Part shown: piece by piece, positions 36,601 to 39,600 of the stretch
Numbering within the stretch: the first letter of the stretch is position 1
Layout: each line of letters starts with the position of its first letter
NCBI RefSeq assembly: GCF_002854065.1
Contig: NZ_CP024150.1
DNA: 64,000 nt
Source: Escherichia coli
GTDB lineage: Bacteria; Pseudomonadota; Gammaproteobacteria; Enterobacterales; Enterobacteriaceae
Strand: one strand, 5' to 3'
Made by a program: the position numbers

Positions 36601-39600
36601 TATTAAAACCAGGGGGAACCGGATGCACCAGAAGGTGGATGGTGAGGTTGTTTTTTGTATGTGGTGCTGATTTTTTGTGCACTGACGGGCTTCAGGCGTG
36701 CGAATGCCTCCGGCGTGGGCCGGATTATTCTGAGGAGATCACTTTCAGGGAGAAGCTGTGGCCAGCCGGCTGTAATTACGGTTACGTGACAGAATCATGC
36801 GCTCCTTCACACGACGCTCCACTTCGCGTTTTACCGCCTCACCATTAGCAGTGAAGCGCCCTTCCGAGATTTCACGCGTCAGCTGCCGTTTCACCAGGGT
36901 GACGATATCCTGACGTTCCCTGTTCGCATCACGACGCGCACGGGCACGTTTTATTCCACGGGACTTAAGCTCTGTCTGGTAACTGCGGAAACGCTCACGC
37001 ACAAAACGCCAGGCTTTCGCTATCAGCTCATCCATACCCAGGGTATCCAGCCCCTGCTTTTTGCGCTGTCTGTTTTCCCATTCAACACGACTGCGGCGCG
37101 CAGCTGCCACTGCATCCTCAGACACATCAAGGGCAGCAAACAGAGCCGGTGTGAACGTGATGTCGGTCGGAATGTAGCACCCGATAAGCGGGTCATATTC
37201 CGTCTGGTAGGTAATCAACCCCAGCTCTGACAGGAACGTCAGGGCACGGGTGGCACGGGTGATGGAGAGTTTTCCGGCAGCAGACTCCGTCGCCAGTCCG
37301 CACTCAATGGCCAGCGTGGTGATGGAGCACTGGACGCGGTTGGCCAGCGGGTCATAGTGGAAACACAGCCCCTGCAGGAGCGCATCAATAGCCCGTCGAC
37401 GCAGCACCGGTGGCATGCGTCGACGCAGACCACGCGAACGGGCATGCGCCACATGAATGGCGAAATCAAAACGGGAAGTGAAGCCCACCGCCTTTTCCAT
37501 CAGTTTTTCGCAGAACTTCAGCGTTCCGGCACCTTTACGGGGTGTAAACACCGGATTCGGGTTCTTTACCTGGCGGTAATACGTTTGGTGAAGATCAGTC
37601 ACACCATCCTGCACTTATGTTGCACAGAAGGAGTGAGCACAGAAAGAAGTCTTGAACTTTTCCGGGCATATAACTATACTCCCCGCATAGAGCAACAGCT
37701 TCTATGCGGTTTCTTGTTAGCCCCGTTAATCTTCTTCTCAGTCGCCAAACTTGCTGAAGATTATCGGGGTTTTCACTTTTCTGGCTCCTGTAAATCCACA
37801 TCAGAACCAGTTCCCTGCCACCTTACGGCGTGGCCAGCCACAAAATTCCTTAAACGATCAGTAATCTAGCACTGACAGAAAAAACTAGCAAGAATGTGAT
37901 CCCATCACATCATGTTCCTGTGACAGGCCTCTTTCTCGATAAGCCTTTCTATCAACTCTGCCTGAGTTACCCCTTCCTCTGCACACAGACTGGTAAGGTA
38001 GTTTTTCAGTTCTGGTCTGACGAAAACTTTGATCTCTTTACATACAGATCGTTTGCGCGCAGAAGCTGCTCTCTGTCGTTCTGCTTCACTCAAAGGTTTA
38101 CCCTTTCTGTATGCTCGTTTTGCGCCAGATGAGGAAGTCACTGCATTTTCTGTCTGCGACATCTCGCCTCCTCAATACTCAAACAGGGATCGTTTCGCAG
38201 AGGATACTACAGTTTTTTGAAATCAGCGACTTGAGAATTGTGACGAAGATCTGTGTTGGCGCACAAATCAACGGGGATTACTGTCGTTTAATGTGATTTA
38301 AACTGTGAAATAGTATGGTTTTCAGTTATGGAAACGCCGGGAGCGGGGAAAACTTGCTTTTTCCCGTTTCCGGGGTTGGACAACTGAGCAACGCGAAGGC
38401 GTCAGCTACGATGTTCCGGTGACTGCTGGGCAGCCCCTGTTGTATTCAGCCATTCTCCGGTCATCTGCAGCAGTTTTCTGGCATCGTGGCTTCTGAGCAA
38501 CGGAATACCAGCCTGCCTCAGAACCTCTTCCAGAAGAATATCCCGGCGTCTGCGTTCAGGTCGTAAATGGCTGGCATCATCCAGCTCTACTGCTGCAACA
38601 ATACTGAACGAACGCCGCTCAACGATAACCACATCAACATGCCACTGAGACACCATCCTGAATAACTGCCACCACTGGCGTGATCGTGGCCGGATATTCC
38701 CGTTCAGCTGGACGATATCTGCGACCCGTACCTGCGGACACAGATACCACCGCTTCATATCCACAATTCTGAACAGTCCTTTCATAAAACTGACTTCCCT
38801 TTCTGTCAGCAGCGTCTTCTGACGTTGCCAGTATTCACCGCCGGACAGTATTCGCTCTGCATCACCGGTCCGTATACCTGCCGCATGCAATTGCATCAGC
38901 AAAGGAGAATGCTGATTTACACTTCTGAGGATAATCCGGATAAGTAACGCTGCAATAATCAGAACAATGAGAATAAAAATAATCAGCTTCATTGTTTATC
39001 TGCTCCTGGTAATTAATTATGCTGAATTATTACCTTACATATTTCCATATCTCTTTTGGTATCCTGTCATATAACTTTCCGGTGATTAATTCCGCTAACC
39101 GGTGGTCTGCTGCTGAATTAAATGATTCACGTTCACTGTTTAATAAACTGTCTCTGTTTTTATGAATAATTTTTTCCAGCGTATTGACTGATGAACATCG
39201 CCGTAACTGATACAGCCATTCCTGTTTTGTTTTCGCCATTTTTATTCCCGCTGAGAACAGATGAATGATAAGATTGCCATCGCTTTATTTACGGTGTCTC
39301 CATATCCAGGGGGGAACCGGATCAGCATCTGACCAGAGCCCACGTTTTTGTTGTCTGGCTTCGTTCTGAAGGACAGGCAGCACGGGATCTGTGTTGTACT
39401 GCTCATATACCCAGGCAGCCCCGGCCCGGACCATAAACTGATTAACATTCATTCCGTCTGGTGCATAAACCTGCCCGAGAATACGACCATAACGATCTCG
39501 CTGAAAATATGTGACGGTAACCGTTTTTCCTGCAACCAGTGATTTCATCATGTCCGTTGACCACCGGCCATAATCCTGTTTCTTTTCCGGTGCATCAATA

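Follow-up and report, generated by a model that had tools for sequence, protein, structure and literature searches.

The window analysed here, a stretch of 64,000 nucleotides of Escherichia coli contig NZ_CP024150.1 (NCBI RefSeq assembly GCF_002854065.1), harbors a plasmid replication locus whose genes and signals are collected in Table 1. Judged by its sequence, the locus is a standard R1/R100-type IncFII (RepFIIA) basic replicon comprising copB, copA/CopT, tap, repA and oriR. The replication initiator RepA is an equivalog of the IncFII family (TIGR03474, 581.9 bits with a cut-off of 446.9, covering amino acids 9-283 of 285; NF010313, 620.1 bits; Pfam PF02387), and its gene is overlapped by that of the 24-aa leader peptide Tap. 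CopA is encoded between copB and tap on the strand opposite to the leader, and a CopB/RepA2 gene is located further upstream. In addition, the start codon of repA is GTG, as at the homologous position of R1 and R100, and a DnaA box is found 3′ of the gene. The interval 36745-37669, given in the preliminary description, corresponds to tap and repA together.

Table 1. Genes, RNAs and signals of the IncFII replicon, with positions counted from the first nucleotide of the window
Feature	Position	Strand	Remarks
copB (repA2)	37905..38162	-	85 aa; NF010256 138.6 bits (cut-off 87); PF10723 115.7 bits
CopA antisense RNA	37687..37778	+	Rfam RF00042 85.5 bits (gathering 60), E 1.1e-15, full length 1-92
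Promoter-like site of copA, TTGAAC-17-TATACT	37652..37680	+	Putative; match to consensus only
tap (repA6) leader peptide	37595..37669	-	24 aa; TIGR03475 64.9 bits (cut-off 35.05); PF08048 53.6 bits
tap start codon ATG	37669-37667	-	Read from sequence
tap stop codon TGA	37597-37595	-	First base 2 nt past the repA GTG
Predicted RNA hairpin over repA Shine-Dalgarno sequence and GUG	37599..37636	-	RNA folding, MFE -15.8 kcal/mol
Upstream in-frame GTG, alternative repA start	37612..37614	-	From ORF list; probably unused
repA Shine-Dalgarno sequence AGGA	37607..37610	-	4 nt 5′ of GTG; putative function
repA start codon GTG	37600..37602	-	Direct sequence reading
repA (repA1), IncFII replication initiator	36745..37602	-	858 nt; 285 codons plus TGA
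DnaA box TTATCCACA, perfect match	36561..36569	-	3′ of repA; beside AT-rich stretch at about 36420-36480

CopT, the target of the antisense RNA, is the complement of CopA and lies on the repA mRNA. The promoter-like site of copA overlaps the tap start codon on the opposite strand and ends 7 nt before the 5′-end of CopA. The copB product has been described as a transcriptional repressor of the repA promoter (PMC5717011). By their position, the DnaA box and the AT-rich DNA 3′ of repA probably represent the expected oriR; for oriR1, a fully matched DnaA box has been described (PMC5883639).

In PLSDB, the most similar whole replicon shows 98.3% identity. The 20 kb surrounding the replicon are mosaic, which is ordinary for F-type plasmids.

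The junction of tap and repA reads AGGATGGTGTGACTGA on the minus strand, giving GGA TGG TGT GAC TGA in the tap frame and GTG ACT GA in the repA frame. It had been claimed that repA begins with a GTG at the end of tap, and direct reading confirms this. The further statement, that the coupling geometry with tap is preserved by a TGA overlapping the start codon, holds only in part. The geometry is indeed that of R1 and R100, but the tap stop codon does not overlap the start codon: within GTGACTGA it is the second TGA, so that the two reading frames share 8 nt. Another TGA (gTGA, 37601-37599) overlaps the GTG, but this one belongs to the third frame, where it ends a mini-frame ATG-GTG-TGA (37607-37599).

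A mechanical ORF call lengthens repA to the upstream in-frame GTG at 37614-37612 and yields a protein of 289 aa (MQDGV...), in which the codon at 37602 would encode an internal valine. Initiation at this upstream codon would agree with the longest possible ORF, with the NF010313 profile, which reaches two positions beyond the N-terminus of the 285-aa protein, with a few database records rotated to this codon (H114, H115 and H32), and with the ORF1 annotation of RepFIC records, which begins at the upstream GTG. Against it stand the sequence before the upstream codon (..tgtgcaacataaGTG), which is devoid of a purine-rich Shine-Dalgarno sequence, and the AGGA, which precedes the downstream GTG by 4 nt and lies 3′ of the alternative codon. 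Moreover, PGAP has repA begin at the downstream GTG in all RefSeq records sampled, the tap stop codon is placed for re-initiation at the downstream codon, and the exchange of the downstream GTG for ATG in R1 raised RepA, as expected for the true start (PMC3495755). Initiation at the upstream GTG is therefore very improbable, and this codon was rejected as the repA start. Homology, the position of the Shine-Dalgarno sequence and the R1 mutagenesis result together assign the start of RepA to 37602. The proposal that initiation probably occurs at this GTG is thus upheld, given the AGGA 4 nt upstream and the annotation of R1 and R100 from the homologous codon.

Public annotation of repA is inconsistent, with 285-aa and 289-aa versions in use and plasmid records linearised at either GTG.

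A different question is whether the GTG is a peculiarity of this plasmid. The preliminary description gave an ATG start for RepA1 of R1 and R100 and regarded the GTG in the window as a deviation that may lower translation and copy number; it named GTG in the reference replicons as the observation that would make the codon simply normal. Alignment to the references shows exactly this. In R100 (NC_002134), tap extends from 88745 to 88819 and repA from 88812 to 89669, with GTG at 88812-88814 in the context gtaagtgcaggatggtGTGactgatcttcaccaaacg. In R1 (NZ_KY749247), tap occupies 664-738 and repA 731-1588; the GTG is at 731-733, and its context is as in R100. The junction gcaggatggtGTGactgatcttcaccaaacg is common to R100, R1 and the window, and both references are annotated in RefSeq from that GTG. 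According to the alignment with R100 and the reading of R1, the stretch gcaggatggtGTGactgatctt is identical base for base in all three plasmids. The ATG attributed to the references was therefore mistaken, and so was the notion of a copy-number-lowering deviation, since the weak start is common to the whole family.

The M of MTDLHQ, as the reference proteins are written, reflects the decoding of an initiator GTG as fMet. It hence cannot be concluded from an initial M in a written protein sequence that the gene begins with ATG. An alternative is that the GTG arose here from an ATG of R1 and R100 and gives less RepA translation and a lower copy number than in these references. In its favor, the reference proteins are written with an initial M, initiation at GTG is in general weaker than at ATG, and in R1 an ATG raises RepA (PMC3495755). 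However, the DNA of R100 and R1 has GTG at the homologous base, an ATG junction is absent from 20,395 E. coli records, and all 22 replicons sampled below have GTG, which leaves this derivation practically no probability.

The effect of the start codon itself has been described for R1. Bower & Prather (2012) termed the wild-type repA start a “sub-optimal GTG”, and their GTG-to-ATG mutant pDMB-ATG produced more RepA, which was detectable for longer, and showed stronger temperature-induced amplification (PMC3495755). Because the ATG mutant of R1 gave more RepA, the weak start codon can be taken to limit RepA (PMC3495755). The mutagenic primer of that study, GCAGGATGGTATGACTGATCTTCACCAAACGTATTACCG, equals the window sequence except for the single G-to-A exchange. 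The comparison of GTG with ATG that had been suggested for this repA is thus, in essence, already published for R1 (PMC3495755). Both the initiation of IncFII repA at GTG and the coupling of this gene to tap are already known, as textbook features of copy-number control in R1 and R100.

To view the start codon across natural plasmids, a census was carried out on the complete RefSeq genomes of E. coli (20,395 records from 5,426 genomes) by megablast with short junction words; at these query lengths, the seed of 28 bases requires the start codon to match exactly. The 30-nt core ATAAGTGCAGGATGGTGTGACTGATCTTCA with GTG was found in 2,261 records from 2,032 of the 5,426 genomes. Since the 30-nt junction recurs in so many records of complete E. 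coli genomes, and since RepA, Tap and CopA exceed their curated thresholds by a wide margin, the arrangement of repA and tap is not due to chance. The same core with ATG had no match in the 20,395 records of the 5,426 complete genomes, a result that refers to exact words, so that an ATG variant with a second change nearby would escape. In the same set, a 34-nt junction word with GTG matched 865 records and its ATG version matched none of the 20,395; the lower count of the longer word results from a common His5/Gln5 polymorphism (H5Q, caccaa/caacaa).

The 80-nt region around the junction was detected in 3,552 records. The difference between this number and the 2,261 records with the core arises largely because records are linearised exactly at the GTG. 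Comparison of GTG and ATG with 80-nt queries in the complete E. coli genomes gave no full-length exact match ranked first for the ATG query, where other polymorphisms and end-trimmed alignments filled the band of at least 99%. The repA GTG forms the exact beginning of many deposited plasmid records, which have been rotated accordingly (matches H117-H127 and H31-H39); in both groups, position 15 of the query is position 1 of the record. Such rotation is itself evidence of where annotators place the start of repA.

Beyond exact words, 22 FII-type replicons were read, sampled evenly down the match rankings and supplemented by reference plasmids, including R100, R1, a pO157-type plasmid and plasmids of Shigella flexneri, S. 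sonnei, Klebsiella and Salmonella. All 22 have the GTG start with the tap TGA 2 nt downstream, among them two divergent junctions, aggaaggtGTG and gctggatggtGTGgctgag.

Of the known systems, those of R1 and R100 are the closest to the locus in the window. R1 has the same gene order (copB-copA/CopT-tap-repA-oriR1), a tap of 24 codons, the AGGA 4 nt before the GTG and the tap TGA 2 nt past it, and its junction is identical to that of the window from taagtgcagg through cttcaccaaacgtattaccg. The repA genes of the two plasmids differ by 21 nt and their products by 4 aa (K23E, A108G, P152L and R178K, window to R1), and residues 16-18 of Tap are R-I-V in R1 and C-N-I in the window. Differences from R1 are also listed for the loop region of CopA/CopT and for copB over its distal two thirds, as seen in the R100 alignment. 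R100/NR1, in which the genes are named repA1 and, for the leader, repA6, shares the GTG start, the 8-nt overlap and the Shine-Dalgarno sequence with the window. Both also agree almost completely in the promoter-proximal part of copB and in the region of the repA promoter, whereas copB diverges after about codon 22 and the CopA stem-loops differ; repA shows 36 nt and RepA 8 aa differences. As far as the alignments tell, the variation in copB and CopA is of the incompatibility-allele type expected for a different FII allele.

The only different architecture met among the replicons read is that of the RepFIC type (F, p1108-IncFIB). Here, the same tap, the GTG at its end and the overlap of the form start codon-NN-TGA are present as in the window, but the GTG opens an ORF1 of 160-164 aa, a distant homologue of the RepA N-terminus (32% over 98 aa, E 2e-8). 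The true repA follows ORF1 with an ATG start and a strong Shine-Dalgarno sequence, GGAGGGGG, and the ORF1 stop overlaps this start (ATGGCTGA), again with the start-NN-TGA geometry. In F, the RepFIC unit is shortened to a truncated copy. The repY-repZ systems of IncI-alpha/IncB follow the same logic, in that an antisense RNA blocks a leader peptide to which translation of the initiator is coupled; unlike the window, control of repZ there needs an activating pseudoknot. The PK-repZ RNA model reached only 25 bits on the window (gathering threshold 44, E 0.015, partial match to 4-60 of 150), and with a score under the gathering threshold, membership in the repZ-pseudoknot family was rejected.

RNA folding predicts a hairpin that joins the Shine-Dalgarno sequence and the GUG start of repA to upstream tap codons. 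Its strands (37636-37599) pair as UCAC with GUGA, which contains the start codon plus the following A, as CC with GG, and as UUCUGUGC with GUGCAGGA, the latter pairing involving the Shine-Dalgarno sequence, so that the AGGA lies within the 3′ arm. Compared with shuffled sequence, the hairpin has no significant excess of stability (z = -1.24). Across the seven distinct haplotypes of the 22-replicon sample, 99% of the hairpin pair cells are standard pairs, and the variation consists of three one-sided changes which preserve pairing (A-U/G-U, C-G/U-G and U-A/U-G); a search for covariation across these seven haplotypes revealed no compensatory double change. The predicted hairpin is thus compatible with the sequence data, and conservation and literature argue for it. 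The title of Blomberg et al. 1994 reportedly names an inhibitory structure, to which the hairpin predicted in the window presumably corresponds. R1 and R100 have G-U and C-G pairs where the window has A-U and U-G, and the window hairpin is predicted to be 2.2 kcal/mol weaker (-15.8 versus -18.0 kcal/mol). This haplotype is common to five replicons of the sample (L002, L006, L007, L013 and L020). Exchange of the first G of the GTG for A changes the predicted stability from -15.8 to -12.6 kcal/mol, a cost of 3.2 kcal/mol.

For R1, translation of repA has been described as coupled to that of tap, and CopA as inhibiting RepA synthesis indirectly through a block of tap translation (PMC12779154, PMC5717011). 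Together with these descriptions, the anatomy of the junction points to standard termination-reinitiation coupling of tap and repA. RepA would start at the family-normal GTG, 4 nt past the AGGA Shine-Dalgarno sequence. Because both elements would be buried in the hairpin, ribosomes would reach the repA start only if tap is translated through it. A ribosome on tap would unwind the hairpin and terminate at the TGA 2 nt past the GUG. CopA, by binding to CopT, would block translation of tap and therefore the synthesis of RepA, and this block would set the copy number. The weak GTG start would then be one of the means by which RepA is kept rate-limiting, rather than something peculiar to the plasmid in the window. 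The effect of GTG versus ATG, the coupling and the control by CopA are taken from the R1 literature, and by analogy the copy in the window would be expected to behave in the same quantitative way. Taken as a whole, the locus is almost certainly a standard IncFII replicon whose repA initiates at the family-normal GTG within a tap-coupled copy-number control.

The first G of this start codon, which is invariant in the FII-type family, may have three roles at the same time, a tentative proposal to which we give somewhat less than an even chance. It may make the start codon weak and so limit RepA, it may close the hairpin through a C-G pair of the outer helix, and it is the middle base of the tap codon for Cys23, which a G-to-A exchange would turn into Tyr. 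Because the first G would carry all three loads, the published ATG mutant of R1 would have altered the structure and tap besides the codon. This triple load may also be a reason why the census contains no natural ATG allele. If the proposal is true, the weaker hairpin of the window could slightly raise RepA synthesis independent of tap, as far as the folding model goes, and a natural ATG would be selected against as a copy-up or runaway-prone allele instead of being missing through descent alone. That thousands of natural plasmids in the census carry no ATG allele is in keeping with selection for a weak start codon in an initiator that limits the rate of replication.

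The start assigned to repA differs among public records. Most of them use the GTG equivalent to that at 37602 of the window, which yields a protein of 285 aa, and some plasmid records (H114, H115 and H32) are linearised at an upstream in-frame GTG, from which the protein would have 289 aa. The TGA overlapping the repA GTG belongs to a mini-frame, ATG-GTG-TGA, for which no Shine-Dalgarno sequence of its own was obvious. A hairpin that would sequester the ribosome-binding site is also predicted here; its haplotype in the window (A...T...ACA) has a predicted stability of -15.8 kcal/mol, compared with -18.0 kcal/mol for the haplotype of the reference IncFII plasmids R1 and R100. 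Because of the difference in haplotype, residues 16-18 of the leader peptide Tap read C-N-I in the window and R-I-V in R1/R100.

Coordinates of features in and around the replicon (window positions unless another record is named)
Feature	Position	Strand	Remarks
Upstream in-frame GTG	37612-37614	minus	
RBS-sequestering hairpin (predicted)	37599-37636	minus	
Mini-frame ATG-GTG-TGA	37599-37607	minus	third frame, within Shine-Dalgarno/start region
Promoter-like match TTGAAC-17-TATACT	37652-37680	plus	
ParE-family toxin and ribbon-helix-helix antitoxin	35274-35833	minus	PF05016, 64.1 bits; PF01402, 42 bits
DUF2726 protein	38402-38992	minus	PF10881, 77.1 bits; weak restriction-endonuclease-like match
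ORF1 and repA region of p1108-IncFIB (NZ_MG825378)	743-1237 and 1230-2087		
RepFIC-type unit in plasmid F	3850-4200		

The sole promoter-like match of the region ends 7 nt before the 5' end of the antisense RNA CopA and overlaps the start codon of tap on the opposite strand. A "terminator" reported by the scan at 37683-37709 was rejected as such, as it is really stem-loop I of CopA.

The toxin and antitoxin genes, which share one base, lie about 0.9 kb past the repA stop, beyond the putative oriR; in R1 and R100, pemI/pemK are located on the same side of repA, but farther out. The DUF2726 gene is found directly upstream of copB, and R100 also has a DUF2726 protein at this place.

A PLSDB search with the 20-kb neighbourhood 28000-48000 revealed no close plasmid match, the best being an Escherichia albertii plasmid (95.4% identity over 83%), followed by E. 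coli ETEC1747 (98.0% over 71%). The 1.56-kb replicon alone reached 98.3% in its top match. The backbone is that of a mosaic F-type plasmid. In complete E. coli genomes, the tap-repA junction also occurs at 28 chromosomal places, for example in NZ_CP007390 at 4.10 Mb, which presumably represent integrated IncF plasmids or assembly joins.

In RepFIC-type replicons such as that of p1108-IncFIB, an ORF1 of 160-164 aa begins at the GTG located at the end of tap. The true repA then starts at an ATG that overlaps the ORF1 stop, in the same geometry as at the tap end (start codon, two nucleotides, TGA). In plasmid F, the RepFIC unit ends early, past the ORF1 start. A Pfam search with ORF1 gave no matches; comparison with the winged-helix region of RepA identified it as a distant homologue (32% over 98 aa, E 2e-8). 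The arrangement as a whole suggests a three-step translational relay, in which translation would pass from tap through ORF1 to repA and which recombination with a divergent repA would have left behind.
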